NCBI GenBank assembly: GCA_000091165.1
Contig: FP565575.1
Span: 210,001-242,000, forward strand
Reading direction: 5' to 3'
Origin: Candidatus Methylomirabilis oxygeniifera
GTDB lineage: Bacteria > Methylomirabilota > Methylomirabilia > Methylomirabilales > Methylomirabilaceae
DNA length: 32,000 nucleotides
Shown here in pieces: positions 370-16,562 of this stretch. Below the pieces are notes generated by a model. The model saw only the letters and a list, made by a program, of their open reading frames with translations, ran no database searches and was not told the DNA's origin. The position numbers and the translations under genes are program-made. Numbering within the stretch: the first letter of the stretch is position 1; every line of letters begins with the position of its first letter.

Positions 370-1017
370 TCATCGCTTGTGTGTGGCAGCCCCCTTTGCA
401 CGCTTTCGGCGGCTGGGCTTGACCTCCGCTGTTTGGGCGTGCTGCGGCCACCAGAAGGCTGTCGCCGCAAACCAGAGCAGGATCGGGAAGAGACCGAACC
501 CGTTGACGGAAAAGAAGGCGTAGCCCCACTCGTACAGCTTGACTGTAAACGAAGAAGCGGCCTCAGGCATCATGCCGTGCGCCTGCAGCCCTGGATAGAC
601 GGCGGTCCAGCGTAGCTTGATGTACAGGTCGGCAAGATGCAGCATCGACAGCCCCGCCCCACCGGCCAGGCAGATCTTGGCTTTCGTTGCCAGGCCAAGC
701 AGCGGCGTGGCAATGGTCAGGGAGACGAGCAGGATCATGTTGACGTAGGTGGCGTCGTCGAGCACATTGACGGTGGCCATGCCGGCAGACCCATCCGACT
801 TGGTCACTGGTCTGACGATCCAGACCCGCCGATCCCTAGCTTCGAGATGACTGTCCGGCGGAAGCATCCCCGTCGCATGCAGAATGGTCTGCCCGACCGT
901 AGCCATTCCCTGAGCGTACAAAGGGGAGAGGAAACGCCAGACGGCGAGCAGCAGCAACAGCGCAATGGTAAACCATGCGGTGAAACGGCCGATTCTAGCT
1001 CTGAGGGTGGCGAGCAA
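370..1017 (-). CDS. Polytopic membrane protein of unknown function, translationally coupled partner of the exosortase-like gene (start uncertain)
   Basis: Long ORF 370-1125. It overlaps the upstream gene's stop (995-997). In-frame TTG at 1017 precedes the first hydrophobic helix (FTAWFTIALLLLLAVW). At least 4 hydrophobic segments and a basic C-terminal tail. No family recognised. Confidence 0.55.
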   Translation of the reverse strand: MLATLRARIGRFTAWFTIALLLLLAVWRFLSPLYAQGMATVGQTILHATGMLPPDSHLEARDRRVWIVRPVTKSDGSAGMATVNVLDDATYVNMILLVSLTIATPLLGLATKAKICLAGGAGLSMLHLADLYIKLRWTAVYPGLQAHGMMPEAASSFTVKLYEWGYAFFSVNGFGLFPILLWFAATAFWWPQHAQTAEVKPSRRKRAKGAATHKR

Positions 1018-1513
1018 GGGCCCCTGCCCAGAATAGCCAGAGGCCCAGGGCGAAGACGATGAAGAGCGACTGCCAGACATAGATATGCGCGGTGTCAAAG
1101 TACGGGCGAAAGTGGCTTCCGACATAGATCAGGCTGAGCACCCGCATCAGGTTCAGAATATACAGCGCGCCGCTGCCCAGGAGCACGCCCCAGAGACGTT
1201 GTCGCCAGGTCGCCGGATAAGCGAGTATTGCCGACACGAACAGGGCCGTCTCGTAGATGGCGTTGCAATTGTTCTGAATCGCCACCGAGAAGAGGGGGGT
1301 TGTGACCACCTTGTCATGCACCGTGGCCTCCGTCCCGCCGAGCAGCAGAATGGTTCGCGCGAGTTGAGCGATTCCCCTGGTAAAAGGATCGACAAGCTGT
1401 CGGTCCAGACCGTACAGCAGGCCGAACAGGCCCAGGATATACAGGCCAAACAGCAGTGCGCTGCGTCGGATCTGGGCGCGAGGAGATGGTGATTCAACCT
1501 CTGAGGTTTGCAT
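995..1513 (-). CDS. Minimal exosortase/archaeosortase-family protein (about 172 aa)
   Basis: Polytopic. The order of conserved elements fits the exosortase core: ...LGGTEATVHDKVV...VAIQNNCNAIYETALFVSA (Cys motif) ... YILNLMRVLSLIYVG (Arg motif) ... H-IYVWQSLFIVF (His). The size resembles the short XrtF/XrtH-type exosortases. Confidence 0.55.
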   Translation of the reverse strand: MQTSEVESPSPRAQIRRSALLFGLYILGLFGLLYGLDRQLVDPFTRGIAQLARTILLLGGTEATVHDKVVTTPLFSVAIQNNCNAIYETALFVSAILAYPATWRQRLWGVLLGSGALYILNLMRVLSLIYVGSHFRPYFDTAHIYVWQSLFIVFALGLWLFWAGALARHPQS

Positions 1514-1745: not shown

Positions 1746-1771
1746 CCTCAGTAGTGACGGTGGAGGTTGGT

Positions 1772-2941
1772 ATGGGGTGTTGTATCCATTTGACCAGGCG
1801 GCAGTTTCTGAGCGCGGCAATGACGCTGGCCGCTATAGCGCCGTCGTGGCTGCCGAGGCCGGCCGAGGCCGCCCCTACCCCTGTTCCCGTTCCAAAGACG
1901 TTGGGTCGAACAGATGCCCTGCTGAAGGAGATCATTACGACCTATGCGTCCGTAGAAGACGACCCATGGGTCCTGATGCACGGAGTGAGGGCCTTAGGAT
2001 CGTCCTTTTCGGTAAAGGGAGAACGGGCGGTTGATTTTCTCTGCGCCCGGTTCCTGACGCCTCAGGCGGTGAATGGAAAGAGCTATCCTCAGATGTCCCT
2101 CGACAATCAGGGCCATACCAATACGTTCCTCAAGACCCTCATCGAGGCCGGCATAGGACTTGATCATCGCTTTGCATTGGAAGGCAGGCGCTACACCGTC
2201 GGCGACATCGCCGAGGGGGCGAAGGCCCTCTTTGCATTTGATCCGAAGACCGCCAATCCGGACGACCTGGCCTGGACGTTGATCGCCCTCTCCCGGATCA
2301 TCCCTCCGGATAAGGACACCTGGACGAATGCGGCCGGGCAGCGGATCCGCTTCTCTGACGTGGTCCGTTTTGCCTTCGATACCCTTGATGAGACGACGGC
2401 GCAGTTCAGGCAGGCGAAGGCGAAAGGGGTCATGCCGGATGCCAACGACAAGGTCGTCAATTTTACCTGCGGTGGGACCCACTTGGTCTACGGCCTGACG
2501 ACATGTGTCGGCAATGGGTATCGTGACCACGGGTTTCCGCAACGTCTCAAGACGCACCTGGATCTGATGGCCTGGCGTCTCGAGGCCGATGACCGCCTGA
2601 TCGATCGGTTCTATCGCAATGCTGCTCCCCCCCCGGGGAATCCGAGCGGATGGCAGGCGGTTCACGCTCTGCACCACAATGACGCCAAGATCAAGTTCTA
2701 CGGCCACACATTCGAGATACTCAGTTATGCCGTGCAGCACAAACTGTTTAAGCCGACCTCCACTCAGTCACAGGCGATCGAGCGGGCCGGGACAAGACTA
2801 GCGGGGGCGGCGACGGGTATAAAAGGAGTGGACCTGTTCGAGGTGCGCAAGGCCAGTCGCCGCCTGTTCCACCTGCTGATCGGGGACTCCTGCCATGCCT
2901 ATCACGGTATCCGGATGACGCCCGGCCTCAACCAGGCCTAG
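1772..2941 (+). CDS. Tat-exported protein of unknown function
   Basis: GGAGG at 1762-1766, 5 nt before ATG 1772. N-terminus MGCCIHLTRRQFLSAAMTLAAIAPSW carries a twin-arginine motif (T-R-R-x-F-L) followed by an AEA cleavage-type site. I recognise no domain in the rest. Confidence 0.7.
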   Translation: MGCCIHLTRRQFLSAAMTLAAIAPSWLPRPAEAAPTPVPVPKTLGRTDALLKEIITTYASVEDDPWVLMHGVRALGSSFSVKGERAVDFLCARFLTPQAVNGKSYPQMSLDNQGHTNTFLKTLIEAGIGLDHRFALEGRRYTVGDIAEGAKALFAFDPKTANPDDLAWTLIALSRIIPPDKDTWTNAAGQRIRFSDVVRFAFDTLDETTAQFRQAKAKGVMPDANDKVVNFTCGGTHLVYGLTTCVGNGYRDHGFPQRLKTHLDLMAWRLEADDRLIDRFYRNAAPPPGNPSGWQAVHALHHNDAKIKFYGHTFEILSYAVQHKLFKPTSTQSQAIERAGTRLAGAATGIKGVDLFEVRKASRRLFHLLIGDSCHAYHGIRMTPGLNQA

Positions 2942-2957
2942 GGCGGTGATGATAGAG

Positions 2958-3185
2958 GATACCCCTCTTTGGAAAAGAGGGGCGAGGGGAGATGTTCTCA
3001 ATCGATGTCGATTCATGATTGGAGATCACTGCTGTTTACAATATTCACACTACATCCTTACGGGAACAAGGGAAGTAATGGATTGTATTGATCACTGTAA
3101 AATCCCCCTCCATCCCCCTTTCTCAAAGGGGGAAAATATGGCGAATACCCCTCTTTGGAAAAGAGGGGCGAGGGGAGATTTTCTT
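2958..3185. repeat. Cluster of three G/C hairpin repeats (two of subfamily B, one of subfamily A)
   Basis: Subfamily B: acccctctttggaaaagaggggcgaggggagatNttc at 2961-2997 and 3147-3184, nearly identical, with a third copy at 8054-8094. Subfamily A: atccccctccatccccctttctcaaagggggaaaat at 3101-3137. Confidence 0.85.
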
Positions 3186-3223
3186 AGGGAACTGCCCTTT
3201 TGAGGGATCGAGAAGAGGAGAGC

Positions 3224-3796
3224 ATGGGATTCAAGAACAGTAGCAGGCAACGGATCGTGCGGATGGCAGGATGGCTGCTCGCTGTGGCGGCCGTCGGCGT
3301 CGGATGTGCCGGGCCGTTTACGGCCAGGACGATCGACCGGGAGGCACGGCTGAAAGAGCGGGCCGCCGTATACTGGGAGGCCAGGGTGGCGGGCGATCTG
3401 GTCGAAACCTATCGATTGCACGAGCCGAACTTTCGGAAGAAGGTGACGCTGACCGCCTTTTCGCAGGGCCGTGGGGTGTCCACGGTCTTCGATTACGAGA
3501 TCGCCGCCGTCCGGATCGAGGGGGACAAGGGGTTTGTAACCACCAAGGTCAACTATACCGTGACGCACCCGATGCTGGCCAAGCCGGTCGAGCCGCGCTG
3601 GCGGGATATTGAAGAGCAATGGCGGTGGGTGGATGGCGAGTGGTATCGCCGCTTCCGCTTTCCGATGGGCGATCCCTATCCCGACCAGGCTTGGTGGGAC
3701 CCGCGCGAGACCGGTAAGGTGACCGGCGACGACGCGGCCGTCGGACCGCCGCCTGCTGCAACCCAGGGCCAGACCCCGGCGGAACCGGCGCGGTGA
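3224..3796 (+). CDS. Secreted protein or probable lipoprotein, unknown function
   Basis: GAGGAG lies upstream of ATG 3224. Basic n-region, hydrophobic core WLLAVAAVGVGC with Cys (non-canonical lipobox VGC). Pro/Ala-rich C-terminal tail. Confidence 0.6.
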   Translation: MGFKNSSRQRIVRMAGWLLAVAAVGVGCAGPFTARTIDREARLKERAAVYWEARVAGDLVETYRLHEPNFRKKVTLTAFSQGRGVSTVFDYEIAAVRIEGDKGFVTTKVNYTVTHPMLAKPVEPRWRDIEEQWRWVDGEWYRRFRFPMGDPYPDQAWWDPRETGKVTGDDAAVGPPPAATQGQTPAEPAR

Positions 3797-4083: not shown

Positions 4084-5466
4084 ATGAAGCAATCTAGAAT
4101 TCGTGGAATCCTCGCAGGGGCTGCCGCGGTCGCGTTGATCGGCGGTACGGTTGCCCCCGCCCTGGCGAACACCGAACTGGTGCCTGCCAGCCGCCTGGTT
4201 GCCCCGTTTCTCGACATCAGCTCCGGTCGTGACACCTTTTATATGCTGGTGAACGTCAGCCAGAACGTGAACCTCAATAAGGTCGCCTATCCCATCTCCG
4301 GTACCGTAGATCTCGGTCCGTGGGGCGTCCACCTCGAGCACTATGGTCAGAGCTGCGACAGGGTTGACGAGAGCACGGGCCTGACCCCCGGCGACATCGA
4401 TCAGTTCGACCTCCTGGTGAACTCCGTAGCCCGCACGACGACCGGTTCCGGACAGGCACTCGGAGCGGTGACCCCCAGCGCCACCCAGAGCGGCGTGGCC
4501 GGTCGCGGCTGGACCGATATCGATATCCGGTACGGGTCCGGGACCCTCACCGGCAGCACCAGCATCCAGGCGAACGTCCTGCTTGGAACGGCGATCATCT
4601 CCGATTTCGGGTCTGACTTCGCCTTCGCCTATCCGATGGCGTCGATGATTGGTACATCTACCAGTGGCGGTAACCCCGGCTTCATCGGCGGCAAGATTGT
4701 GCAGCGGAATGCAACGGGCACCGCAACGGCCTGGTTCGGCCGCTATGAGCCGCTGCCCCACCGAGTTTTCGTGCCGATCTACTTCGCTGACGGAACCGAG
4801 AGCGGCAGCGGCGAGACCTTCAACTCATTCCTGGTTGTGGCCGGACCGCCGGATGGCAACTGGGATCGTTCTGATGACGGTGAAGCTCCAGGACAGTCAA
4901 CCGGTAAGGGCCTTGCCGGCCCACCGAACCTGACGCTGAACCTGATCGTCTGGGACGGCTGCGAGCAGAACACCTCATTCAACTACAGCTCACACTTCCT
5001 GAACAACACCTATGCTGCCCTGTTTGGGACGACCACCAACAGGAGCACCTGGAAGACGGCCGTGCCGACCAGTTGTCCGGCCGCTTTCGCCAGCCGCGAC
5101 GAGCTGTCCGGTCAGGCGCTGGGCTGGATCGATATCATCAACTCGGCCAAGGCCTGTGACAATACGGCTAACGGCACGGCTGGTTGTCCCGTCGGCACCG
5201 GCACCGGCGCCGGCACGGGTACCGGCCAGGCGCGCGGTATGGCCGGCATCAACGTCAGCAACGTGGTCAGCTCTTCAGTGAACCTGGGTGACGTGACGCG
5301 GCTGTGGGGTGATGCGTCACCGTGGGGCGTCTCCCCGGCTTCAGGCGATACTGCCACCTGCTACAATGGTGTCGCCTGCCGCTACTCGCTGGTCGACCTG
5401 GTCAGACACGTCGATATCGACCAGACCGGTACGCTTACCAGCTCTAACTCCATCAGCGAGCAATAG
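4084..5466 (+). CDS. Secreted protein, unrecognised family, paralog A (460 aa); candidate major surface protein
   Basis: AGGAGG at 4071-4076, 7 nt before ATG 4084. Sec signal peptide MKQSRIRGILAGAAAVALIGGTVAPALA/NTE. Mature part is rich in G/T/S/N and contains a GTGTGAGTGTG tract. Colinear similarity to 9043-9963. The track ORF 3910-5466 has an in-frame extension with no signal peptide or SD. Confidence 0.8.
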   Translation: MKQSRIRGILAGAAAVALIGGTVAPALANTELVPASRLVAPFLDISSGRDTFYMLVNVSQNVNLNKVAYPISGTVDLGPWGVHLEHYGQSCDRVDESTGLTPGDIDQFDLLVNSVARTTTGSGQALGAVTPSATQSGVAGRGWTDIDIRYGSGTLTGSTSIQANVLLGTAIISDFGSDFAFAYPMASMIGTSTSGGNPGFIGGKIVQRNATGTATAWFGRYEPLPHRVFVPIYFADGTESGSGETFNSFLVVAGPPDGNWDRSDDGEAPGQSTGKGLAGPPNLTLNLIVWDGCEQNTSFNYSSHFLNNTYAALFGTTTNRSTWKTAVPTSCPAAFASRDELSGQALGWIDIINSAKACDNTANGTAGCPVGTGTGAGTGTGQARGMAGINVSNVVSSSVNLGDVTRLWGDASPWGVSPASGDTATCYNGVACRYSLVDLVRHVDIDQTGTLTSSNSISEQ

Positions 5467-5491
5467 TCCTCGCTGTCCTGCTGCTTGAAAA

Positions 5492-5526
5492 GGGGGTCCA
5501 GCTTTCGCTGGACCCCCTTGCTTTTT
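5492..5526 (+). terminator. Rho-independent terminator of paralog A
   Basis: gggggtccagc (5492-5502), tttc loop, gctggaccccc (5507-5517), then ttgcttttt. The 11-bp stem is perfect and GC-rich. It begins 26 nt after the stop. Confidence 0.85.
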
Positions 5527-5698: not shown

Positions 5699-5987
5699 GG
5701 TTCTTCCGGAATTAGCGTGGGTGAACCTGTCTGCGTACAGATACGCACACCCTTTCTCCTCTTTGCCAAACATAAACCCCCCTAACCCCCCTTTTTCAAG
5801 GGGGGGACCGCATCTCCCCCTTTAGCAGGGAAGGGGGGACCGCATGCTTGCACTTCTACTTCTTTTCCCCCTTTCGTAAAGGGGGATACAAGGGGGTTTT
5901 TCTCCCCATGGCCCCTTTGGTAAAGGGGGTGTCCCCGTGTCCAGCGCTGAAGACTCGGCCCCTGCCCACGCTAATTCCGGAAGATCC
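5699..5987 (-). mobile_element. MITE-like non-autonomous element, copy 1 (289 bp)
   Basis: 23-bp TIRs ggttcttccggaattagcgtggg (5699-5721) and cccacgctaattccggaagatcc (5965-5987) match at 22/23 positions. Flanked by the direct repeat ATTTTTTC (5691-5698 and 5988-5995). No ORF. The interior is built from G/C hairpin modules (5786-5806, 5867-5885, 5912-5929). Confidence 0.7.
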
Positions 5988-6115
5988 ATTTTTTCTTGAC
6001 CAAAGCGAGATCTTTCTACATCGCCAAAATGAGCGCTTTCGTGATGGCATGTATAACTCATAAGAGGGTAATACGGAAGGTGGGACTTGGCCTGCAAAGC
6101 GAGGCGGTGAGATCG

Positions 6116-6496
6116 TTACGATGACAGGAATCGCCGCACGGCTTCCAGAATGCGCTGAGCATCCGCGACGTCCCGCCTCGCGTCCTCTTCTGTGATGCTG
6201 AGCATGGCCTCATAGTCCCCAGCTTGCCGATTTTCGTAGAGCCTGGTAAGTAGGATGGTGAACTCGCGTGGGAACAGCCCTTGGTGGACGAACGCTTTAT
6301 TGAATCGGCCCAGTACTTGGGCGTGGCTAGAATAGGTCTCGTCTTGTGATAATAGGGCCGCGCTGATCGCGTGGAACGCCGCGTAATAGGCTCTGGATGA
6401 GGCATCTCCCCATGCGCGGCCATGCAGGAGTAATGTGGCTGCCCGTAGTTTCTCTTCGGCGTGGGCAAGCAGGATGGCCGGAGTGTTGGTGGTCAC
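6116..6496 (-). CDS. HEPN domain protein (toxin partner of the MNT nucleotidyltransferase)
   Basis: GTG at 6496 overlaps the MNT stop (GTGA). LLAHAEEKLRAATLL...AYYAAFHAISAALL...RLYENRQAGDYE is typical of HEPN (PF05168-type). The track's N-terminal extension to 6556 is unlikely. Confidence 0.75.
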   Translation of the reverse strand: MTTNTPAILLAHAEEKLRAATLLLHGRAWGDASSRAYYAAFHAISAALLSQDETYSSHAQVLGRFNKAFVHQGLFPREFTILLTRLYENRQAGDYEAMLSITEEDARRDVADAQRILEAVRRFLSS

Positions 6497-6819
6497 AAGG
6501 GCACTCCTTCGAGGGCGATATTGCGTGCCAGTGGCAAGCCTTGGGCGACGCGCCACTCAGCGTCGGTGCGAAGAATGCTGGCGACCAACGCGCCGTAGCG
6601 GTCCATCAGGTCGGCTTCAATCTCAAGGATGATCGAGCGAACATCCGGACTGCGTTGATCCACGATGACCAGTACGTCGTAGTCGGAGTCCTCGCGGGCC
6701 TCACCTCTGGCTCGTGAGCCGAACAGTACGATGTGCCGGATGTGGTTCCCGAGTCGCGCGCGTAATGTCGACGCAAACGTGTGAAGGACAGGGTCAACGT
6801 CCGTATGGGGAGGTGACAT
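6493..6819 (-). CDS. Minimal nucleotidyltransferase (MNT) domain protein, antitoxin partner
   Basis: IVLFGSRARGEAREDSDYDVLVIV is the GS-x10-D-x-D nucleotidyltransferase motif. 108 aa. 4-nt overlap with the HEPN gene. Confidence 0.8.
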   Translation of the reverse strand: MSPPHTDVDPVLHTFASTLRARLGNHIRHIVLFGSRARGEAREDSDYDVLVIVDQRSPDVRSIILEIEADLMDRYGALVASILRTDAEWRVAQGLPLARNIALEGVPL

Positions 6820-7262: not shown

Positions 7263-7862
7263 TCACTCAGCCGGTGGTTTGAGCCCTTCCAGCCAGATTG
7301 CCGAATCGTTCAGTATGACGACGGTTGTCTTGGTTGCCATCACTGTTATCGGAGAGGCCCAGAGCAGTGTGGAGACCTTTCCGGGCAGCTCGGCAAGGAG
7401 GATCCAGCGGCCATCCGGGACATCCTGGAATGTAAATCCGGCGTCGACATGATTGGTGGTGGCTGATCGAACAAGACTGGGGCCGTGCTGATCCCCCCCC
7501 GCGGCAGCCTGAAGGCGATTCAGGAAGCTGCGTGCTGCGTCAAATCGCTCAGGCGAGAGGGGTTCGCGGCCTCCGTCGAGATACGGGGAGCGGGCCTGAT
7601 TCAGCGCAGATTCCTGCGTGGGGGAAAGCGGCAGGAGGGTCACCGTCCAGCCCGTCAATGGTGTGGGGATTGCAGGCTGGGCGAGGTAGAGGCGACCAAC
7701 AACTGTCCCTGTGTTGCCGGAGACCTGGCGTTCTGCTATGGTGGCAAGATAGGCGGCGTTCGCAGCGGGCCCGGGAGCATGACCGATACCGGCGCAGCCC
7801 GTGAGTGCGACAAGAGACAGCGTTCCCCATATACGTGCCCGATCAAACCTCCTACTGCCCAT
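7263..7862 (-). CDS. Lipoprotein, unknown function
   Basis: Canonical lipobox LSLVALTGC. GGGAGGGG lies 5 nt upstream of ATG 7862. The motif DAGFTFQDVPDGRWILL suggests a carboxypeptidase-regulatory-like beta-sandwich (weak). Confidence 0.7.
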   Translation of the reverse strand: MGSRRFDRARIWGTLSLVALTGCAGIGHAPGPAANAAYLATIAERQVSGNTGTVVGRLYLAQPAIPTPLTGWTVTLLPLSPTQESALNQARSPYLDGGREPLSPERFDAARSFLNRLQAAAGGDQHGPSLVRSATTNHVDAGFTFQDVPDGRWILLAELPGKVSTLLWASPITVMATKTTVVILNDSAIWLEGLKPPAE

Positions 7863-7947: not shown

Positions 7948-8020
7948 ATCCAAAGATAGGCAGATAGGTAATCAATCAGTGAGAGGGGGGAAAATCATTG
8001 AATCCACTGGGGGTTCATTA

Positions 8021-8094
8021 TAAAATCCCCCTTTTTCAAAGGGGGAAACGGTTAGTCCCCCTCTTTGGAAAAGAGGGGTTAGGGGAGATTTTCC
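8021..8094. repeat. Two adjacent G/C hairpin repeats (subfamily A at 8027-8045, subfamily B at 8057-8078)
   Basis: ccccctttttcaaaggggg and cccctctttggaaaagagggg, followed by ttaggggagattttcc. The subfamily B copy matches 2961-2997 and 3147-3184. Confidence 0.85.
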
Positions 8095-8158: not shown

Positions 8159-8192
8159 GTTGAGGTCAGTCGTCAGCGCCGGGTACGGGGAC

Positions 8193-8236
8193 ATACCCCC
8201 TTTAATCCCCCTTTGCCAAAGGGGGAGGGGGGGGGA
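8193..8236. repeat. G/C hairpin repeat (subfamily A) followed by a G9 tract
   Basis: ccccctttgccaaaggggg at 8207-8225. Homopolymer G9 at 8227-8235. Confidence 0.8.
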
Positions 8237-8366
8237 GATGGGGAATGACCACATACACCGGATAGACGAAATGTCGAACGGCTTGGGCGAGGGGGTTGGA
8301 ATGTATCTGATCGGTTGCGGTACAACGCGAAAGCGGGGAGCAGGATCCCCGAGTATCCGGGGGAGG

Positions 8367-8936
8367 ATGGCTGCCGTTTTGCTGTTCAGCCTGCTTGTCG
8401 GCCTGCCGGCGATATTGGCGTTCGGGGAGGGGAAGTCCGGGATTGTGGACAGTGCGGAACTGATCAAGTTCTATGAACAACTGATGGCCAGTCCGGCCTT
8501 TGATCCGAAGACGCCGTTAGGGCCGGGGCGGGAGGAACGGGGGCGGGCGGAGGAAGAGCTTGATGCCGCCAAGCGCGCCTATGCCAAAGCCAGGGTGAAA
8601 GGCAATCCGGAGGCCCTGGCCGCCGCTCGAGACGTACTGCGCCAGAAGACAGACGCCTTACAGGTTCTGTACGGCAAGACCACTCAGGACCTCAGAGATG
8701 TTGCGAAGTACCGTTCGCCTGATATTCTGGTCGAATCGCTGCGCAGCCGTATTCAGGAGTATGGCCAGGCGCAAGGGTTTGACATCATTACGAATCAACA
8801 GACCGGCAAACCGATGTTCCTCCGAGAGGGCTTTTCCGGCGCCCCGGACAATCCGGTTGACGTCACGGGGGAAATGATCGAATGGATCAGACAGCAGGAG
8901 GCGGCGAGTCAATCCGGCCGTACAACCAGTCCCTGA
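8367..8936 (+). CDS. OmpH/Skp-like periplasmic chaperone (start 8367, or 8301)
   Basis: Signal peptide MAAVLLFSLLVGLPAILAFG. KSGIVDSAELIKFY resembles the Skp N-terminal K-I-G-V-V-D motif. Long helical, charged middle section. C-terminal GFDIITNQ...VDVTGEMIEWI resembles the Skp tail. Confidence 0.5.
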   Translation: MAAVLLFSLLVGLPAILAFGEGKSGIVDSAELIKFYEQLMASPAFDPKTPLGPGREERGRAEEELDAAKRAYAKARVKGNPEALAAARDVLRQKTDALQVLYGKTTQDLRDVAKYRSPDILVESLRSRIQEYGQAQGFDIITNQQTGKPMFLREGFSGAPDNPVDVTGEMIEWIRQQEAASQSGRTTSP

Positions 8937-9042: not shown

Positions 9043-9963
9043 ATGGGCAGGCGCAGACGGGCGGCATGGGCCGCGCCTCTTCTCATGATCGTGTGGGTGT
9101 TGTCCGTCTGCCTTCATCAGCCTGCCCAGGCTCTGGCCGCGACGAACAGCGAGCTGATCCCTGGATCGAGGATTGTCTTCCCATACTACGATCTCCGCGA
9201 AGGCATCTCGACTTTTCTGAGCTTGACGAATGTCGGTCTCGGTTCGGCGACCCTTCACCTGGAATTCTACGATGCGAGCTGTCTGCGGCGAGACAGCAGC
9301 CTGGACCTCTCGGCAGGCGATGCCGACCTGCTGGATATCGGTGCCATCCTGCAGCCTCAGGCAGACGGGCTGTTCCGGCAAGGGTTTGTGGACGTGGTGA
9401 CCTTTGCGGGGGATGCCCTGCTCGGAACGGCGATCATCGTGAATGGGCCGGAGGATTGGGGGATCGTCTATCATGGCGCCTCAGCCAGGCGGTTGTCGGG
9501 TGGTCCTCTCCCATTTGAGCCCTACCCATCACGACTGTTTCTGCCGGCCTTCCTTACTCAGGGGAGCGTGGGTGACGGGAGGCTGAGCGATGGGCTGCTG
9601 GTAGTGGCCGCGCCTCACCCGACCCAGCCAGGCGGTGAACTGCCCGATCTGTCATTACAGTCGACAATCCGAGTCTTTCTCGATCAGGAACCGGCGTTTC
9701 AGTTGACGACGATTGGTGAGAAAGCGGAGGAGGGGCTGCCGACGGCGACCTCGACCGGCCATCAGCTTCTTCTTCCCATCGGTCAGGCCGCGGGGACATT
9801 TCCTACGCCGAGGTTCGGCTGGCTCTCGGTGACCAATCAGGCTGTCGATGAGGTCGGCACACCGATCGGCATGGTGGGTCTGTACATCCAGACGATTGCC
9901 GGAGATGGGTCCGGCATGGGCATGGCGATCCGCCTCTGGGCCGATCCGGCATCCGGGCCGTAG
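9043..9963 (+). CDS. Secreted protein, unrecognised family, paralog B (306 aa)
   Basis: Signal peptide MGRRRRAAWAAPLLMIVWVLSVCLHQPAQALA/ATN. Blocks colinear with paralog A: SELIPGSRIVFPYYD / TELVPASRLVAPFLD; LHLEFYDASC / VHLEHYGQSC; LLGTAII in both; PSRLFLPAF / PHRVFVPIY; LLVVAAP / FLVVAGP; GWLSVTN / GWIDIIN; RLWAD / RLWGD. Confidence 0.75.
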   Translation: MGRRRRAAWAAPLLMIVWVLSVCLHQPAQALAATNSELIPGSRIVFPYYDLREGISTFLSLTNVGLGSATLHLEFYDASCLRRDSSLDLSAGDADLLDIGAILQPQADGLFRQGFVDVVTFAGDALLGTAIIVNGPEDWGIVYHGASARRLSGGPLPFEPYPSRLFLPAFLTQGSVGDGRLSDGLLVVAAPHPTQPGGELPDLSLQSTIRVFLDQEPAFQLTTIGEKAEEGLPTATSTGHQLLLPIGQAAGTFPTPRFGWLSVTNQAVDEVGTPIGMVGLYIQTIAGDGSGMGMAIRLWADPASGP

Positions 9964-9986: not shown

Positions 9987-11150
9987 ATGGGCAGCCTGAC
10001 CGTCGTGATTCGTCAGGGAGCGGATGGCCGCTTCGCGCAGGTCTGTCGGGACAGCCTGGTCAACTGTACCCCGGAGCTGGAACAGATCATCGAGATGCCG
10101 GACGACACCCGCCCTGGTGGTGTCTGGACCCGGATCAGCACCCCGTTTGTGGCATTTATTGACGAGACCGTTGCGGTGTGTCCGGGGTGGGCCGGACGTA
10201 TGATAGCGAGCCTGATCCGATCGGGGGCGGCGGCGATCGGCCCCCTGACCAATGGCGCCGACGGGGCGCAACACCAGGCAGGCGACTATCAGGACATCTC
10301 CGGGTTTTTGGACTTCGCCGACCGGATCGCTCAAGACCGGGCCGGCCGGACCCAGTCGGTTGAGGCTCTGGATCCCTGTTGTGTTCTCTATTCCCGCGAC
10401 AGGCTTACCGGGATCGGGTTAGATGCTGCGCCCAATGACCTGCCGGCATTTGTGCATGATGCCGGCCTCTGCCTGGCGGTTGCCTTGGACACCTACGTTC
10501 ACTCCTTCGCCTCCTACTATGCCCAGGCCCGTCCGGAGGTGGTTGCCATGATTCCGGCGACTGCGTCCCGCATTCTGGATGTCGGCTGCGGAACAGGGAC
10601 GCTTGGAGGCCGACTGAAGACGGAGCGCCGGATTGAGGTTATCGGTGTCGAGATGGATCCGACAGCGGCGGAGGCGGCCGGCCGTGTGCTGGATCGAGTG
10701 CATCGTGCCGACGTAGAGACGCTGGTATTGCCGTATCCTGCAGGGAGCTTCGACGCGATCATCATGGCGGACATCCTGGAGCACCTGCGTGATCCATGGG
10801 GCCTGCTTGCGAGACTTTCGCCGCTTCTGTCATCCGAGGGCCGCCTGATTGCCAGTCTGCCCAATGTCCGGCACTGGTCGGTGGTGCGGGGGCTCCTGGA
10901 GGGCGAGTGGACCTATCTGCCTGCCGGTATTCTGGATCGCACACATCTACGCTTCTTCACCAGGAGGAGCGGCCAGGCCCTTATCGAGTCGGCCGGGTTA
11001 TGTGTGATCGGGACTGAACCGATCCGGTCGGCCGGGCCGCCGGATCTTGCGGCATTGGTCGAGGCCTGCCGGGGCCTTTTACTCGACGTCTCCACCCTCG
11101 TCGATGAGGCGAGCGTCGCACAGTATCTCTACCTGGCGGCGCCAAGATAG
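9987..11150 (+). CDS. Fusion of a degenerate GT2-like N-terminal domain and a class I SAM-dependent methyltransferase
   Basis: The N-terminus has GT2-like topology (LTVVIRQG...FVAFIDETV) without a clean DxD motif. The C-terminal half has ILDVGCGTGTLG (motif I), DAIIMADILEHLRDP and THLRFFT, typical of Methyltransf_11/23-type enzymes. Confidence 0.7.
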   Translation: MGSLTVVIRQGADGRFAQVCRDSLVNCTPELEQIIEMPDDTRPGGVWTRISTPFVAFIDETVAVCPGWAGRMIASLIRSGAAAIGPLTNGADGAQHQAGDYQDISGFLDFADRIAQDRAGRTQSVEALDPCCVLYSRDRLTGIGLDAAPNDLPAFVHDAGLCLAVALDTYVHSFASYYAQARPEVVAMIPATASRILDVGCGTGTLGGRLKTERRIEVIGVEMDPTAAEAAGRVLDRVHRADVETLVLPYPAGSFDAIIMADILEHLRDPWGLLARLSPLLSSEGRLIASLPNVRHWSVVRGLLEGEWTYLPAGILDRTHLRFFTRRSGQALIESAGLCVIGTEPIRSAGPPDLAALVEACRGLLLDVSTLVDEASVAQYLYLAAPR

Positions 11151-11171: not shown

Positions 11172-11514
11172 GGTTCTTCCGGACTGAGCGCGGGTAGAGG
11201 CCGAGTCTTCAGCGCTGGACACGGGGACACCCCCCTTGAAAAAGGGGGCGAGGGTTTTATCTTGATGGAGGACAACATTGTACTTCGGAGGGTCGTGAGA
11301 AGGACCAAGGAGAAACCCCCTTCGATCCCCCTTTGCCAAAGGGGGAGAAAAGGTAGATGTACAAGCGTGGTACCCCCCTTTGGAAAAGGGGGGCAGAGGG
11401 GGGTTTCTTTTTGCCAAAGGGGGAGACAAGGTCAGGGGAGGTGACTTCCGATTCCTCCCTGCCTGTGCGTATCTGTGCGCAGACGGGTTTACCCACGCTT
11501 ATTCCGGAAGAACC
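11172..11514 (+). mobile_element. MITE-like non-autonomous element, copy 2 (343 bp), inverted relative to copy 1
   Basis: TIRs ggttcttccggactgagcgcggg (11172-11194) and cccacgcttattccggaagaacc (11492-11514) match at 20/23. Flanks agcgatgg and agtcatgg match at 6/8. The interior is colinear with the reverse complement of 5699-5987, including a perfect 36-mer (11199-11234 = revcomp of 5925-5960), and has an extra 51 nt. Confidence 0.7.
11261..11311 (+). pseudogene. 51-nt relic of a DUF559 gene inside MITE copy 2
   Basis: cttgatggaggacaacattgtacttcggagggtcgtgagaaggaccaagga aligns with 44-94 of the DUF559 CDS (about 44/51 identical). It is followed directly by module Y, which in the intact copy lies about 115 nt further on. 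Confidence 0.65.
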
Positions 11515-11552
11515 AGTCATGGAAAAGGAACTGCACAACCGTCCGTTCGGCC

Positions 11553-11595
11553 TGAGCTTGTCGAAGGCTGCTCCGCGCATGGTTCGACAGGCTCA
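11553..11595. repeat. Hairpin repeat of the LSLSKG/FDKLR type
   Basis: tgagcttgtcgaa (11553-11565) pairs with ttcgacaggctca (11583-11595) with one mismatch. Pseudo-peptides of this kind (SLSK... / FDKLRPNG) are common repeat translations in environmental genomes. Confidence 0.6.
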
Positions 11596-11634
11596 CCATG
11601 AGCAGAGCAAGGACATTTACGTCGTGCATTACTT

Positions 11635-12801
11635 ATGCAAACCTCAAGAGTGATCGACGTCGATCCGGTTGATCTGTCCGTCCTGATCGTCAACTATAAT
11701 GTGGGCCGATTCGTCCTGGATGCGATAGGTTCGGTCGCGGCACAGCGGTTTGTTGGGCCTGAAGGGCGTCCCGGTCGTCTTGAGATGCTGGTCATCGATA
11801 ATGCGTCACATCCCGCCGATGCAGCCATACTGGATCGCCTGCCCGCCTCCGTCACCGTCATAAAGAACTCAACGAATCTTGGATTCGCGGCTGCCAACAA
11901 TCAGGGGATTGTACGGGCGCAGGGCCGATACCTCTGTTTCTTGAATCCCGATACGAGGCTTCGAGAGGGATCGCTCCAGGCGATGCTTCAGTATCTGTAT
12001 GAGCACCCCGGGGTTGGAATGGTAGGGCCCATGATCTGGGCCGACGATGAGGGGGTGCTGCGTCTGCCGCCCGGTGATCCGCCCTCTCTGTTGTTTCTGT
12101 TGAGCCGGGCTATGGGCGGGGTCTCTCCGAGGTTCAGTCTGTGGCGGCAAAGGCGGTGGCTCCGATCTGCTGTTCGGTTCTGGCGGGCTGAGGCTCCGAT
12201 GGACACTACCATGCTCTCCGGCGCCTGCCTGATGGCATCGCGGCATGTTATCGAGCATGTCGGCCGGTTCGATTCCGGCTTCTTCCTGTACTATGAGGAC
12301 TCCGATCTGTGTCGTCGCATTCGTGGGCAAGGTTATCGCCTGGTGGTCGTGCCTGCCGCTCAGGTCGTCCATTATTATAATCAGAGCGCAAAGACGGACC
12401 CGGCAGGAGCCTGGTGTCACGCCATGGCCTCCGAGCTTCGCTTTGTCAGGATCCATTACGGTCGCACCGGTGCCCTGATATACCGGATCGCTCAAGACAT
12501 AGGTAGGCGTTCAGGACGGGGTCGACAGCCGGTGAACAGGCCGGACGTGATAGATCTCGGCGCGCTGGAGCGGCCACCCCGATTGAGCGTCCCAGGCGCT
12601 GTCGTGCCCGAGAGGGAGCTGCTATGGCAGGTTGGTCCGGATTCCGGATTTGCGCCCTCGGCCGGAGCCCTGCGTGTCGGGAACGGATTCGACTTTAACC
12701 GGATTGTGTGGGAACGTCTGATGCCCGGACGTTATTTCGCCAGGGCCGTCGATCCAAAGACCCTTCGGCCGATGGCATACTGGTCGTGGGTAAAGCGGTA
12801 G
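11635..12801 (+). CDS. Family 2 glycosyltransferase (rhamnosyltransferase-like)
   Basis: LSVLIVNYN...LVIDNAS...NLGFAAANNQG...FLNPDT...GACLMASRHV...FFLYYEDSDLCRR is the classic GT2 (WbbL-like) motif order. Confidence 0.85.
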   Translation: MQTSRVIDVDPVDLSVLIVNYNVGRFVLDAIGSVAAQRFVGPEGRPGRLEMLVIDNASHPADAAILDRLPASVTVIKNSTNLGFAAANNQGIVRAQGRYLCFLNPDTRLREGSLQAMLQYLYEHPGVGMVGPMIWADDEGVLRLPPGDPPSLLFLLSRAMGGVSPRFSLWRQRRWLRSAVRFWRAEAPMDTTMLSGACLMASRHVIEHVGRFDSGFFLYYEDSDLCRRIRGQGYRLVVVPAAQVVHYYNQSAKTDPAGAWCHAMASELRFVRIHYGRTGALIYRIAQDIGRRSGRGRQPVNRPDVIDLGALERPPRLSVPGAVVPERELLWQVGPDSGFAPSAGALRVGNGFDFNRIVWERLMPGRYFARAVDPKTLRPMAYWSWVKR

Positions 12802-14326
12802 ACCGACAGACGGCTGCGATCTGATCCCACGTCAGCGGAGCAATGCGCTGCTCCCTATGGCGCCATTCGAGAATGACGGTCTTGTCGCTGTCCTGGAGCG
12901 CACCGGCGTGGAGGAGGGGACACGGGTCCCCAGGGTGATGCAGGAGACGGACCTCCTGTGGAATGCGCGTAAACGGGGCTGCCGCAGCGATCGGCAGCGC
13001 CCAACTCCCCTGCCCGAAGAGCTGTGCGCCGAAGTGGAGGTCAGGATTACCGATCATGAGGACGGCGCGCACGTCGGATCTGTTCGCGGCTTGTTCGATC
13101 ACCGCAAGGATTGTCCGGTTGATCCGACCTGCCTGGATCCATGGGAGGCTGTTGACGGATAACAGCATAACGGATGACAGCACGACGGCCGATGTCCATA
13201 TACGACGGATGCGTGTTCGACTCTGATTGAGAAGGACACCGAGAAGGAGGCAGAACCCTGCCGATGATAGATAATGGAGTCTGGCAAAATCATCCGGCGC
13301 GCCCCTTGCCGACAGGAGGCTGAGTACCGGGAGCGCCAGGATGATCATCAGGCCGAGGCAATAGAGCGCCTGTCGACGCATGCTCCCCGTGACGGCAACG
13401 ACCGCGACCACAGCGGCCGAGAGCCACTGGAAGATGCCGATAGCTCGCCTTGCCATGATACCGATCACCGGATCACCCGCAGACGTGAGCAGCGATCCCC
13501 CCGGCAACAGTTGATAGAGAAACAGATGAACGAGCCCGAGCGGCATCAGGGAGGGGTCGGAGGGGTTGGTGTCCATGGGGCCATACTGACCGATGAGATG
13601 CCCGGTGAGTACCTTGCGAAGGATGAAGTAGGCCCCCAGCACGATATAATACGGCAGCAGCGACATGGCCGTGGGAGGGGCGGATCGGTCACGGTTCGGA
13701 TACCGAACCATCACCCAATGAAAGGTCAGGACAATAGGAACGATGACGGCAGTTTCCTTTGAAGCAAGAGCAAGGACGAAGGCAAGCAACGATCCCGGAT
13801 AGAGCAACGGCTGTTTGAGGCCGGAAAAGGCAAGATACAGCAGGATCGCCAGGAGCGCAAAGAAGGCCATGATCAGTTCTGTACGGCCGACGAGCCAGTA
13901 GACGGCTTCAGGGTGCAGGGGGTGGAGCGCAAACAAGAGGCCTGCCGTCAATCCGATAGCCGGTGAGGCAATGGGCCGCAGGGCAGCGATACCGTACACA
14001 AGGAGACCGTTGAAGGCGTTCAAAAGCATGTTGGTCAGGTGCGGACCCACCGGGTTGACTCCCCAAAGGCTTATATCGATCCCGCCGGAGAGCGTTACCA
14101 TCGGACGGTAATAGCTGTAGCTCAGGTCGCCGCGATAGACCGTGTAGAAGTCGGACAGTACGTTCTGCCAGTCGACTGAATTCCTGTCGCCGCTGAGGAT
14201 GGTGACGACGTTGAAGTCGTCGGATAGGAAGTAGCCGTACAGGGATGGGGCGTACACGAGAAGACTCACCGCAAGTATCAGCGACAGATCGCAGGCGATT
14301 CTGGAAGGCAGTGGGGATGGATGCAT
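12695..14326 (-). CDS. GT-C superfamily polytopic membrane glycosyltransferase (PMT/TMTC/ArnT-like)
   Basis: AAGGAGG lies 6 nt before ATG 14326. Many hydrophobic helices. The first extracytoplasmic loop carries YFLSDDFNVV, the acidic DD/DE motif characteristic of GT-C enzymes. Soluble C-terminal domain of about 150 aa. Confidence 0.55.
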   Translation of the reverse strand: MHPSPLPSRIACDLSLILAVSLLVYAPSLYGYFLSDDFNVVTILSGDRNSVDWQNVLSDFYTVYRGDLSYSYYRPMVTLSGGIDISLWGVNPVGPHLTNMLLNAFNGLLVYGIAALRPIASPAIGLTAGLLFALHPLHPEAVYWLVGRTELIMAFFALLAILLYLAFSGLKQPLLYPGSLLAFVLALASKETAVIVPIVLTFHWVMVRYPNRDRSAPPTAMSLLPYYIVLGAYFILRKVLTGHLIGQYGPMDTNPSDPSLMPLGLVHLFLYQLLPGGSLLTSAGDPVIGIMARRAIGIFQWLSAAVVAVVAVTGSMRRQALYCLGLMIILALPVLSLLSARGAPDDFARLHYLSSAGFCLLLGVLLNQSRTRIRRIWTSAVVLSSVMLLSVNSLPWIQAGRINRTILAVIEQAANRSDVRAVLMIGNPDLHFGAQLFGQGSWALPIAAAAPFTRIPQEVRLLHHPGDPCPLLHAGALQDSDKTVILEWRHREQRIAPLTWDQIAAVCRSTALPTTSMPSAEGSLDRRPWRNNVRASDVPTQSG

Positions 14327-14437
14327 GTCGGGCCTCCTTGTGCCCCACAGTGAAGGCGATACCATCATAACCGCCATATCAGTATCACGACCCAGGAGAT
14401 GTTGCAATCGTTCTTCAGTCGGTATAGATGCCTTACC

Positions 14438-14467
14438 TTGACGGTTCAAGTCCAAAGCCATTATACT
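14438..14467 (+). promoter_or_regulatory. Sigma70-like promoter of wzm-wzt and downstream genes
   Basis: TTGACG (14438-14443), 18-nt spacer, TATACT (14462-14467). GAGAGGAG lies upstream of ATG 14503. Confidence 0.45.
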
Positions 14468-14502: not shown

Positions 14503-15294
14503 ATGAAGGCGATACGAGCGATCTATCGATACAGAGAGGTGACATTCAGCTTTGTGAAGCGGGATCTGGCGGCTCGCTACAAGGGTTCGACCTTCGGAAT
14601 GCTCTGGTCGATCGTCAATCCTCTCATTATGCTGATCCTTTATACCTTTGTCTTCTCCACGATCCTGAAGGTTCGGGTGGGTGTTCAGGAGGGTACCGGC
14701 AGTTTTGCCGTCTACCTGTTCTGCGGTCTGCTGCCATGGAACGCCTTTGCCGAGCCCCTTGGACGGTCCACGGGGATCGTGTTTGAGCATACCAATCTTA
14801 TCAAGCGAATGGTATTTCCGGTCGAGATCCTTCCTTTATATATTGTCATTTCAAGTATAATCAATCAACTGATAGGTCTGGCCATCCTTTTCCTCGTCCT
14901 GCTTGCGAACGGACATCGGTTCAGTATGCTGATTGCATTCCTGCCGGCGCTTCTCCTTCTCCAGATTACTTTTACCGTTGGATTAGCCTGGATTATAGCC
15001 GGAGCCACTGTCTTTTTGCGCGATATTGCTCAGGTGATCGGAATGATCACGACCCTGTGGCTTTTCCTGACCCCGATATTTTACACGGCTAATCTTGTTC
15101 CTGAGGGATGGCGGCCTTTTCTAGGGTTGAACCCGATGTATGCCGTTGTTGAGTCGTACAGGTCTATTATCCTGAAAGGGCAGTTGCCTGATCCGAGCAG
15201 CCTGATTTACCTTTTTCTCACGGCTGTCATTACCTTTGTTGTCGGCCATCGGATTTTTACTAGGATGCAACCCGCGTTCGCTGATGTGATCTGA
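14503..15294 (+). CDS. wzm: ABC-2 type polysaccharide export permease
   Basis: YRYREVTFSFVKRDLAARYKGSTFGMLWSIVNPL is the typical Wzm/TagG/KpsM N-terminus. Six hydrophobic segments. 263 aa. Confidence 0.85.
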   Translation: MKAIRAIYRYREVTFSFVKRDLAARYKGSTFGMLWSIVNPLIMLILYTFVFSTILKVRVGVQEGTGSFAVYLFCGLLPWNAFAEPLGRSTGIVFEHTNLIKRMVFPVEILPLYIVISSIINQLIGLAILFLVLLANGHRFSMLIAFLPALLLLQITFTVGLAWIIAGATVFLRDIAQVIGMITTLWLFLTPIFYTANLVPEGWRPFLGLNPMYAVVESYRSIILKGQLPDPSSLIYLFLTAVITFVVGHRIFTRMQPAFADVI

Positions 15295-16562
15295 TGTACG
15301 CGATTGAGGTCCATGACCTTTCTAAGGTCTATCGGCTCTACTCGAATCCGAAGGACCGCCTCAAGGAGTATCTCTTCCGGGGCAGGCGGACCTACCACCA
15401 GGCGTTCTGGGCCTTAAGAAATGTGAGTTTCAGGGTTGCACATGGCTCGACGTTAGGCCTTGTCGGCGACAACGGGGCCGGTAAGAGCACGCTGCTTCAA
15501 CTGGTGGCCGGCACTCTGCGGCCCACATCCGGCAGCGTGACGTTGAATGGCCGCGTCTCCACAATCCTGGAACTGGGTGCGGGGTTCAATCCGGAGTTTA
15601 CAGGTCGAGAGAATGTCTTTATGACAGGATCAATCATGGGGATACCACAGCAGGAAATGGAGCGGCGATTCCCGGAGATTGCCGCGTTTGCAGAAATTGG
15701 GGATTTTATTGAACGGCCTGTAAAGCTGTATTCCAGCGGCATGTACGTCCGCCTTGCGTTTGCTGTTGCGACCAGCGTGGACCCCGACATACTGATAGTC
15801 GATGAGGCCCTCTCTGTCGGGGATCAGTACTTTCAGAAGCGCTGCATAGATCGGATCGAAGGTTTCAGGAAGTCCGGTAAGAGCATACTGTTTTGCTCTC
15901 ACAATCTGTACCAGATCAGATTGATCTGCGACGAGGCCGTCTGGCTGAAGGATGGTGAGGTCGCCATGGCCGGAGAGGCCTCCAGGGTTATTGGAGCGTA
16001 TCAGAACTATATGCGGGAGAGGGAGATGCCAAAGGCTTCTCCCGCCACGGTTGAGGTCGGACCAAGGACCTTTCCCTGGGTCTCAGGTGTACGGCTGAGC
16101 TGTGGTGACGAGGAGGGGGATCGGGATGAGTTCGTAACAGGAGACGAACTGGTCGTGACGGTCGCGTACGAGGTGCCTGATCCGCCAAGGGTTGTTCATG
16201 TGGGTGTCGTCATTGTCAGGAACGATTCGGTGCAGGTATTCGGCACCGGCACCCACGTCTCAGGCGTCAAACTCCCACCCCGTTCGAGCAGTTCAAGGAT
16301 ACGTTTTCCGGCACTTCCGCTTCTATCCGGTCAATACGCGATTTCAGTGTTCCTTCTTGATGAGCACGGAATTCACGTCTACGATGAAAAGGAGCGCGAG
16401 TTCAAGTTCCAGGTGACTCAGAATGTGCAGGCCCTGGGTCTGAGCTTCCTGGAACACCGTTGGGACGTGGAGGTCCCGCATGAGGCGAACGGCAAGTGGG
16501 GCTCTGACGATCACGCCGGCAACAAGCAGATAAACAATGCGTTAGGCATCGTCAAAGGATAA
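15294..16562 (+). CDS. wzt: Polysaccharide ABC transporter ATP-binding protein with a C-terminal Wzt_C-like glycan-binding domain
   Basis: Walker A GDNGAGKST, signature YSSGMYVRLAFA, Walker B ILIVDEALSVGD. A C-terminal extension of about 170 aa shows a beta-sandwich pattern (FVTGDELVVTVAY...LLSGQYAISVFL). Its start overlaps the wzm stop by 1 nt (TGATG). Confidence 0.85.
   Translation: MYAIEVHDLSKVYRLYSNPKDRLKEYLFRGRRTYHQAFWALRNVSFRVAHGSTLGLVGDNGAGKSTLLQLVAGTLRPTSGSVTLNGRVSTILELGAGFNPEFTGRENVFMTGSIMGIPQQEMERRFPEIAAFAEIGDFIERPVKLYSSGMYVRLAFAVATSVDPDILIVDEALSVGDQYFQKRCIDRIEGFRKSGKSILFCSHNLYQIRLICDEAVWLKDGEVAMAGEASRVIGAYQNYMREREMPKASPATVEVGPRTFPWVSGVRLSCGDEEGDRDEFVTGDELVVTVAYEVPDPPRVVHVGVVIVRNDSVQVFGTGTHVSGVKLPPRSSSSRIRFPALPLLSGQYAISVFLLDEHGIHVYDEKEREFKFQVTQNVQALGLSFLEHRWDVEVPHEANGKWGSDDHAGNKQINNALGIVKG

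Follow-up and report, generated by a model that had tools for sequence, protein, structure and literature searches.

Bacteria of the genus Methylomirabilis oxidize methane with nitrite, and their rare polygonal cell shape is attributed to a surface layer (S-layer). Only one S-layer protein of the genus is known. We analysed a stretch of 32,000 nucleotides (nt) from Candidatus Methylomirabilis oxygeniifera (M. oxyfera; contig FP565575.1, positions 210,001 to 242,000 of the forward strand), hereafter called the window, which carries two related genes, A and B, for proteins with predicted signal peptides. The pair offers two specific candidates for envelope components that are still missing, and A and B share a conserved locus with exosortase H (XrtH) and O-polysaccharide export genes.

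[quoted passage not shown] The lattice is reported as oblique or square in M. oxyfera and hexagonal in M. lanthanidiphila (PMC8671808). [quoted passage not shown] Secreted actinobacterial proteins with two ASRAH domains show tight linkage to glycosyltransferases (PMC2739507). Slr4 (PF19526) is an S-layer family of marine Gammaproteobacteria, predicted to be beta-helical and served by dedicated type II secretion (PMC7821379). Set beside these systems, the family of A and B is undescribed and restricted to one phylum, yet it appears to lie inside a known sandwich-domain superfamily.

Two paralogous proteins with signal peptides

Comparison of A (460 aa) with B (306 aa) by BLASTP gave an E value of 1e-17 and 26% identity over ~400 columns, and comparison of the A-family and B-family alignments by hhalign gave a probability of 100% and an E value of 1.6e-51 over 285 columns. 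All six-frame open reading frames (ORFs) of the window were then scanned with hidden Markov models (HMMs) of both families. The B-family HMM detected A at 1.8e-24 and the A-family HMM detected B at 8.1e-35; the ORFs of A and B were the only matches, and no other six-frame ORF reached E <= 10 with either model. A and B are true paralogs, and the family has exactly two members in the window. A sequence-only reading of this DNA had proposed such a two-member family on the basis of seven colinear blocks, and suggested pairwise and profile alignment as a check; all seven blocks are present in the BLASTP alignment, and the similarity is significant by both methods. The peptide LLGTAII is identical in the two proteins in that alignment. 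The DNA coding for it (4569-4599 in A, 9408-9438 in B) is 84% identical over 31 nt, and it is the sole similarity between the two genes caught by a repeat scan of the window. A neighbouring 302-aa protein in a related locus (L004), with a similar-looking N-terminus ('NEATDLVAPYGHFD'), was considered as a third paralog and ruled out (hhalign probability 0.8%).

Homologs formed 53 clusters for B and 56 for A, all annotated as 'hypothetical'. With the exception of one record labelled Verrucomicrobiae, the named close homologs belong to Methylomirabilis, Methylomirabilota or NC10, and A-type and B-type genes occur together on single contigs, for example PQAM01000008 and JASDBE010003628. A and B are old paralogs and, judged by this distribution, specific to the phylum Methylomirabilota (NC10).

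The annotated starts lie at 9043 for B and 4084 for A; the longest-ORF starts, 8977 and 3910, respectively, had no match in the protein collection. Both precursors begin with a basic segment followed by a hydrophobic one closing in A-x-A, and signal peptides were assigned to approximately residues 1-28 of A (…APALA|NTELVP) and 1-32 of B (…AQALA|ATNSEL). Directly after the cleavage site, an invariant motif, (A)NTELVP(A/G)SR(L/I)V-P-x-x-D, is found in the A and B families alike. A twin arginine (M-x-RR-…) is present in most B-family signal peptides and not in those of the A family, so the export routes may differ, with twin-arginine translocation (Tat) for B and the Sec pathway for A. No C-terminal sorting domain or hydrophobic tail was found at the C-termini of either family. 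The precursors are acidic, both with an isoelectric point (pI) of ~4.7, and a number of Asp, Glu, His and Arg positions are invariant in the family alignments.

The AlphaFold2 (AF2) models of A and B are all-beta, and each contains two sandwich domains. The conserved core of about 270 aa, which the sequence-only reading took for a single fold, is therefore better described as two beta-sandwich domains. Its description of B as the compact form is borne out: B lacks the Gly/Thr/Asn-rich loop expansions of A, and the ~150 extra residues of A fall into heavily gapped, length-variable loops in the homolog alignment and into a disordered C-terminal tail of low confidence in the AF2 model. A has nine N-x-S/T sequons and B has none. 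There are seven Cys in A and two in B, one of the latter within the signal peptide and one in the mature protein; A thus carries six Cys beyond the single one common to B. The variable insertions, the six extra Cys and the nine sequons of A fit exposed loops in an oxidising compartment.

Predicted fold and remote relatives

The models of both proteins were compared with the PDB by Foldseek. The B model matched 1nc7 (Thermotoga TM1070) with a probability of 1.00, a TM score (TMt) of 0.76-0.77 and a root mean square deviation (rmsd) of 2.5-2.8 Å, and the A model matched the same structure with a probability of 1.00 and a TMt of 0.67-0.74. For both models this was the only high-probability PDB match, all others having TM <= 0.2. 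Matches to pilin, arrestin, antibody and glycosidase structures, at TM <= 0.2, were dismissed as generic tandem sandwiches.

With the B profile as query, a full HMMER search of 1.84 billion representatives recovered 133 proteins at E <= 1e-3. Beyond the A and B families, the matches were secreted proteins of ~320-330 aa and multi-domain proteins matched in an internal repeat. Among 56 distant matches, Pfam DUF5719 was present in ten (best E 6.6e-19), ASRT in three (best E 2e-13) and Slr4 in two. The B-like stretches coincide with the DUF5719 and ASRT stretches: residues 683-750 of P0158 with DUF5719 at 682-764 and ASRT at 699-770, and, in P0221, residues 554-628 with DUF5719 at 555-618 and residues 346-433 with ASRT at 353-415. 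The same coincidence was observed in P0167, P0188 and P0204, and in P0153 the N-domain profile matched both halves of the protein. Below threshold, DUF5719 was detected in 5 of 26 B-family members (best E 0.011) and in no A-family member.

These repeats provide a path from B to ASRT. The B segment 'PGSRIVFPYYDLR-G--TFL-LTN' aligns to the DUF5719/ASRT-type repeat 'PGTTFYFAEGTTRPGF--YFAI-N', which aligns weakly (E 0.17) to ASRT 2ii7 '…VCILNAGDEDAHVEITIYY'. The invariant Asn of both families (N63 of B; the Asn of '…LVN/LTN' in the A family) stands at the end of modelled strand 2, and B N63 aligns, through the intermediate repeat, with the Asn of ASRT '…CILN'. The repeat-mediated alignments thus suggest that B N63 is the signature Asn of ASRAH. 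In conjunction with the Foldseek results, the N-domain is predicted to be a divergent ASRAH-type sandwich, through fold and transitive sequence evidence; neither A nor B directly matched the ASRT or DUF5719 family models above curated cutoffs. This assignment would bring a new phylum and a new architecture into the superfamily of ASRT/DUF5719-type sandwiches. It also touches the idea of a structural pair put forward by the sequence-only reading, which membership of both proteins in a known family with an unrelated role would have undermined. It does so weakly: a relation to a known family was found, but the ASRAH link is remote and the function of ASRAH is itself only predicted.

Stretches resembling the B N-domain overlap Slr4 matches in P0224 (residues 272-342; 47 bits) and in P0221 (residues 450-496), so the ASRAH-like sandwich type may serve in a real S-layer protein too. 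A literature search on DUF5719 found nothing.

The conserved locus

The features of the locus are listed in Table 1. A near-identical strain (L008), whose sequence continues for 6 kb beyond the left edge of the window, was used for clean gene calls, including the 232-aa call for the Skp-like gene. Its left part encodes a beta-propeller protein, a BNR protein, a PMT_2+TPR protein of the GT-C type, a glycosyltransferase of family 2 (GT2) and a DUF559 protein. These are followed by the minus-strand pair of partner protein and exosortase, a 389-aa protein with a Tat-like RRQFLS motif, a 190-aa lipoprotein-like protein and A, and then, on the minus strand, by a HEPN/MNT pair and the 199-aa lipoprotein. 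The right part contains the Skp-like gene, B, the methyltransferase, GT2, the large membrane protein on the minus strand, and finally Wzm and Wzt, the latter having a Wzt_C domain.

Table 1. Coordinates of A, B and associated features in the window
Feature	Position	Strand	Details and evidence
XrtH partner, membrane protein, 215 aa, just downstream of xrtH	370..1017	-	pair conserved with XrtH
Exosortase H (XrtH)	995..1513	-	TIGR04177, 104.2 bits (cutoff 86); upstream of A in L008, L009 and L012
Paralog A	4084..5466	+	460 aa, predicted to be exported; annotated protein exact; AF2 predicted local distance difference test (pLDDT) 77, predicted TM score (pTM) 0.80
Predicted N-terminal ASRAH-like beta-sandwich of A, with loop insertions	4174..4653 (approximate)	+	hhalign register with B N-domain; Foldseek 1nc7; invariant Asn of …LVN
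Intrinsic-terminator-like hairpin	5490..5519	+	24 nt past the A stop; 13-bp stem, 9 GC pairs, T tract
Putative lipoprotein, 199 aa, divergent from Skp-B	7263..7862	-	synteny in L001 and L012; lipobox-like LTGC
Skp/OmpH-like periplasmic chaperone, 232 aa, directly upstream of B	8238..8936	+	weak Pfam OmpH (E 5.8e-4); synteny in L001, L002 and L012
Paralog B	9043..9963	+	306 aa, predicted to be exported; annotated protein exact; AF2 pLDDT 82, pTM 0.81
Predicted N-terminal ASRAH-like eight-strand beta-sandwich of B	9148..9492 (~residues 36-150)	+	Foldseek 1nc7; profile alignment to DUF5719/ASRT repeats
S-adenosylmethionine-dependent methyltransferase, 23 nt downstream of B	9987..11150	+	Pfam Methyltransf_23 and related; synteny
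GT2 glycosyltransferase, adjoining the methyltransferase in relatives	11635..12801	+	
Large polytopic membrane protein; may be a GT-C/PMT-like glycosyltransferase	12695..14461	-	weak Agl23; 30% over 182 aa to the L008 PMT_2+TPR protein
Wzm permease of polysaccharide ABC exporter	14503..15294	+	
Wzt ATPase of polysaccharide ABC exporter	15294..16562	+	Wzt_C domain in ortholog

The arrangement is conserved in more distant relatives. Two loci, in which B is 76% (L001) and 54% (L002) identical, retain the order lipoprotein, Skp-like, B, methyltransferase, GT2, membrane protein, Wzm, Wzt and beyond. In a third (L012), in which B is 42% identical, the kept genes are those for PMT_2/TPR, GT2, partner and exosortase, the 389-aa protein, a 164-aa protein, A, the lipoprotein, OmpH, B and the methyltransferase; there the Skp-like ortholog has a strong OmpH assignment (E <= 1e-5), and the start of the methyltransferase gene overlaps the stop of B. 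The two paralogs were claimed to have different expression contexts, and this holds in the features observed: A, preceded by a gap of 288 nt, is followed by the terminator-like hairpin with its 13-bp stem, and B lies 23 nt before the methyltransferase gene in an order conserved across species. To describe A as monocistronic and B as part of an operon is reasonable from this arrangement, though not proven. Among the genes of the window and of L008, no usher or pilus chaperone families were detected.

Several further elements of the window were observed. Between xrtH and A lie genes for a conserved protein of 395/389 aa that bears the canonical Tat motif TRRQFLS (1754-2941, plus strand) and for a conserved ~190-aa protein with a lipobox-like VGC (3200-3796, plus strand), both without a family match and in an order kept in L012. 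A HEPN/MNT (MntA-like nucleotidyltransferase) toxin-antitoxin pair (6058-6468 and 6493-6819, minus strand) separates A from the lipoprotein gene; L012 has no such pair at that position, and the pair is probably an insertion in M. oxyfera. Short GC-rich palindromic intergenic repeats, resembling repetitive extragenic palindromic (REP) elements, occupy most gaps (CCCCCTTT…AAAGGGGG and CCCCTCTTTGGAAAAGAGGGG types), with copies at 210-248, 2952-2998, 3096-3184, 5770-5887, 8009-8094, 8189-8227 and 11309-11409. An alternative, longer Skp-like ORF from 8130 crosses the copy at 8189-8227, which favours the later start at 8238. An element of ~300 nt, similar to a miniature inverted-repeat transposable element (MITE), is present in at least three copies (5699-5987 versus 11172-11514, inverted; 44-89 versus 11261-11306). 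One copy separates the methyltransferase gene from GT2, two genes that adjoin each other in relatives, and a 98-aa ORF within the element (11357-11653) is probably not a real gene. Farther to the right, a 1460-aa multi-domain protein (18429-22811, plus strand) and a 664-aa protein (25250-27244, plus strand) have in common an HAD-like N-terminal motif, 'FD-FDT-(L/V)-R', and are also alike in their C-terminal parts; by these similarities they appear to be paralogous glycan-modifying enzymes of the same cluster.

Candidate roles in the envelope and comparison with described systems

From the conserved locus of glycan synthesis, glycan export and XrtH, together with a fold predicted to bind sugar, we infer a glycan-binding role in the envelope. 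Our preferred, though tentative, reading, to which we give somewhat less than an even chance, sees in A and B non-enzymatic proteins of the envelope that would bind surface glycan of the cell itself and help to organise its outer layers. Both the predicted fold and the remote homology speak for an envelope protein of the carbohydrate-binding kind and not for a pilin-like polymer subunit. Both proteins would be exported with a cleavable N-terminal signal peptide and would fold into two sandwiches, the first being a divergent ASRAH member predicted to bind sugar. The bound glycan would most likely be the O-polysaccharide exported by the ABC transporter, made by genes in the putative operon of B. 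In this way, A and B may help to organise or tether the outer layers, including an S-layer of IPTL-CTERM protein sorted by XrtH. B would be the compact core version, produced alongside the glycan machinery and the chaperone, and A a separately transcribed version whose large, variable, Cys-bridged and Ser/Thr/Asn-rich loops are probably exposed and possibly glycosylated.

Several observations weigh against this glycan-binding reading. The ASRAH link of A and B is transitive and dependent on predicted models, at the strand-1 position of the ASRAH Trp (W/F in 'T(W/F)YFAEG') B has Ile/Leu and A has Leu, and sugar binding by ASRAH is a prediction, not an experimental result (PMC2739507). As single sequences, A and B had no match in Pfam, NCBIfam or the PDB sequences, and the B profile likewise had none in the PDB. 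The two halves of B show no sequence similarity to each other (hhalign E 0.57-0.92) and no signal of internal duplication, and the two modelled sandwiches form at best a putative 'dyad'. Another lineage (L004-L006) carries GT4, DUF748 and DUF1318 genes downstream of its B-like gene, indicating that the operon link is not universal, and no Skp-like gene lies upstream of the B-like gene in L004, the sole one of these loci with upstream sequence. No outer-membrane secretion system was identified for A and B; the signal peptide covers the inner membrane only, and the proteins may be periplasmic. Finally, mela_00855 alone was recovered from the S-layer sheets of M. lanthanidiphila, after boiling in sodium dodecyl sulfate (SDS) (PMC8671808).

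A rival view, in line with the major/minor or anchor pair of the sequence-only reading, takes A and/or B to be building blocks of the surface layer of M. oxyfera, whether lattice-forming or otherwise structural; they would form a second sheet or would replace or complement the IPTL-CTERM protein. We consider that view unlikely. It would suit the stand-alone gene of A, with its 288-nt upstream gap and very strong terminator, the acidic precursors (pI ~4.7), and the phylum restriction combined with the XrtH locus; moreover, lattice symmetry differs between species, the authors of the S-layer study did not exclude that further lattice-associated proteins had been lost on SDS boiling (PMC8671808), and the B-like stretch of P0224 overlaps its Slr4 match. 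Against these points stand not only the recovery of a single protein from the sheets but also the lack of a C-terminal sorting domain in A and B, the seven Cys of A and the lack of support for an A-B interaction, and the Slr4 connection is one indirect step that runs via a third protein. Another reading, also improbable in our estimation, places B, and perhaps A, in the periplasm as an accessory of the Wzm/Wzt O-polysaccharide pathway and not as a surface or S-layer component, where it would hold the glycan, nascent or capped, to be handed over or ligated or to have its chain length controlled. The conserved, operon-like series of Skp-like protein, B, methyltransferase, GT2, GT-C-like protein, Wzm and Wzt (with Wzt_C in the ortholog) argues for such an accessory, as do the N-terminal signal peptide unaccompanied by an outer-membrane secretion signal and a fold predicted to bind sugar (PMC2739507). 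However, A keeps the same core outside that operon, the B-like gene in L004-L006 stands beside other genes, and the hypervariable, sequon-rich loops of A look exposed. We know of no periplasmic accessory of this kind in characterised Wzm/Wzt systems, which also counts against it.

The remaining explanations are much less probable. The invariant motif directly after signal-peptide cleavage in both families (NTELVPxSR…) could in principle act as a donor strand, so that donor-strand exchange would join A and B into a fibre or pilus, and CfaB pilin fusions do appear in the Foldseek list (E ~8e-4). The CfaB matches, however, have TM 0.12-0.13 and rmsd 27-29 Å, as generic tandem sandwiches do, and no pilin Ig fold was found; in the AF2 model of B the motif leads directly on to strand 1 of an N-domain that is complete, and its hairpin pattern recurs in internal repeats of distant relatives, which makes it a signature of the fold and not a terminal donor strand. 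As the locus also lacks usher and pilus chaperone genes, we give this explanation very little credence. A role as secreted enzymes, such as hydrolases, lyases or modifying enzymes acting on envelope polysaccharide, appears equally remote: the glycan-biosynthesis neighbourhood and the invariant Asp, Glu, His and Arg residues would accommodate it, but no catalytic domain was detected by sequence or fold, and the small sandwich domains resemble binding modules.

A bolder reading would make A and/or B unrecognised structural parts of the polygonal envelope, either as a glycan-binding adaptor between the XrtH-sorted IPTL-CTERM sheets of the S-layer and the O-polysaccharide or outer membrane, or as the former of the oblique/square lattice of M. 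oxyfera. We regard this as doubtful; if true, A and B would be determinants of the unusual polygonal shape, and interest in them would rise with a demonstrated role in that envelope. If they were only periplasmic accessories of the glycan pathway, the result would be a routine gain in annotation.

The relation of A and B to the known S-layer protein was examined through its C-terminal tail. None of the six frames of the window contains an ORF with an IPTL-like motif and tail. A 299-aa protein of L004 (5676-6575, minus strand), with a long poly-Thr tract and the tail 'VIPTVGPWG…', passes TIGR04174 (IPTL-CTERM); its gene is flanked by xrtH and the B-like gene, 3.4 kb from the latter, and the protein is probably of the mela_00855 type. 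The window thus holds no IPTL-CTERM substrate gene, and one stands beside xrtH in L004. The 299-aa protein had no tblastn match in the window, and a homolog search seeded with it returned three proteins only, its poly-Thr tract swamping the search. At a mass of 100.0 Da per residue, mela_00855 is nearer to proteins of the IPTL type (99.7-102.6 Da) than to most B-family members (102.3-107.2 Da). B is unlikely to be the ortholog of mela_00855, as it lacks the IPTL-CTERM tail and differs in mass per residue, both being proxy evidence and not a direct alignment. By these sequence criteria, the published S-layer protein is most likely distinct from A and B. XrtH has the NCBI product name 'IPTLxxWG-CTERM-specific', which denotes an exosortase specific for IPTL-CTERM tails such as that of the S-layer protein. 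Literature searches found nothing on XrtH/IPTL-CTERM, and nothing on CBE67388 beyond PMC8671808.

Compared with mela_00855, A and B come from the same genus, B is of similar size (306 versus 316 aa) and has a signal peptide, and both systems share the description 'No homology to known proteins' and a glycosyltransferase-rich neighbourhood; they differ in that A and B have neither IPTL-CTERM nor the very hydrophilic C-terminal stretch. Compared with Slr4 proteins, A and B have no Slr4 match of their own, and the connection is indirect. A widespread, uncharacterised family of ~320-330-aa secreted proteins (for example P0166, P0168, P0175, P0177, P0192 and P0229) is in the length class of B and shares with it a signal peptide followed by the N-terminal hairpin pattern, here PGS-LLVFP-x-D-x-RPG-x-TFLTVTN. 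Comparison of P0177 with B by hhalign gave a probability of 96.7% and an E value of 3.8e-10 over the N-domain and the beginning of the second domain. This family has, in addition, a motif set, DLDG-x-EY-x-AP…FPRF-GQ…FNDNE, that is not in A and B, and the one neighbourhood examined contains PEGA and DUF1028, unlike the locus of A and B.

The closest likeness is to ASRAH. A and B have a predicted eight-strand sandwich of the TM1070 type, with TMt up to 0.77, and the strand1-turn-strand2 signature closing in an invariant Asn; unlike ASRAH (PF07100), they have an aliphatic residue in place of the signature Trp, no above-threshold Pfam match and, in A, large loop insertions. They differ from the actinobacterial branch (probably DUF5719, PF18986) in phylum, in lacking a lipobox, and in a second domain that is not recognisably the same domain; the actinobacterial loci contain WhiB and a zincin-like protein, whereas the locus of A and B contains XrtH, the Skp-like chaperone and Wzm/Wzt. 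Like the actinobacterial ASRAH proteins, A and B are proteins with two predicted sandwiches, an export signal and linkage to glycosyltransferases.

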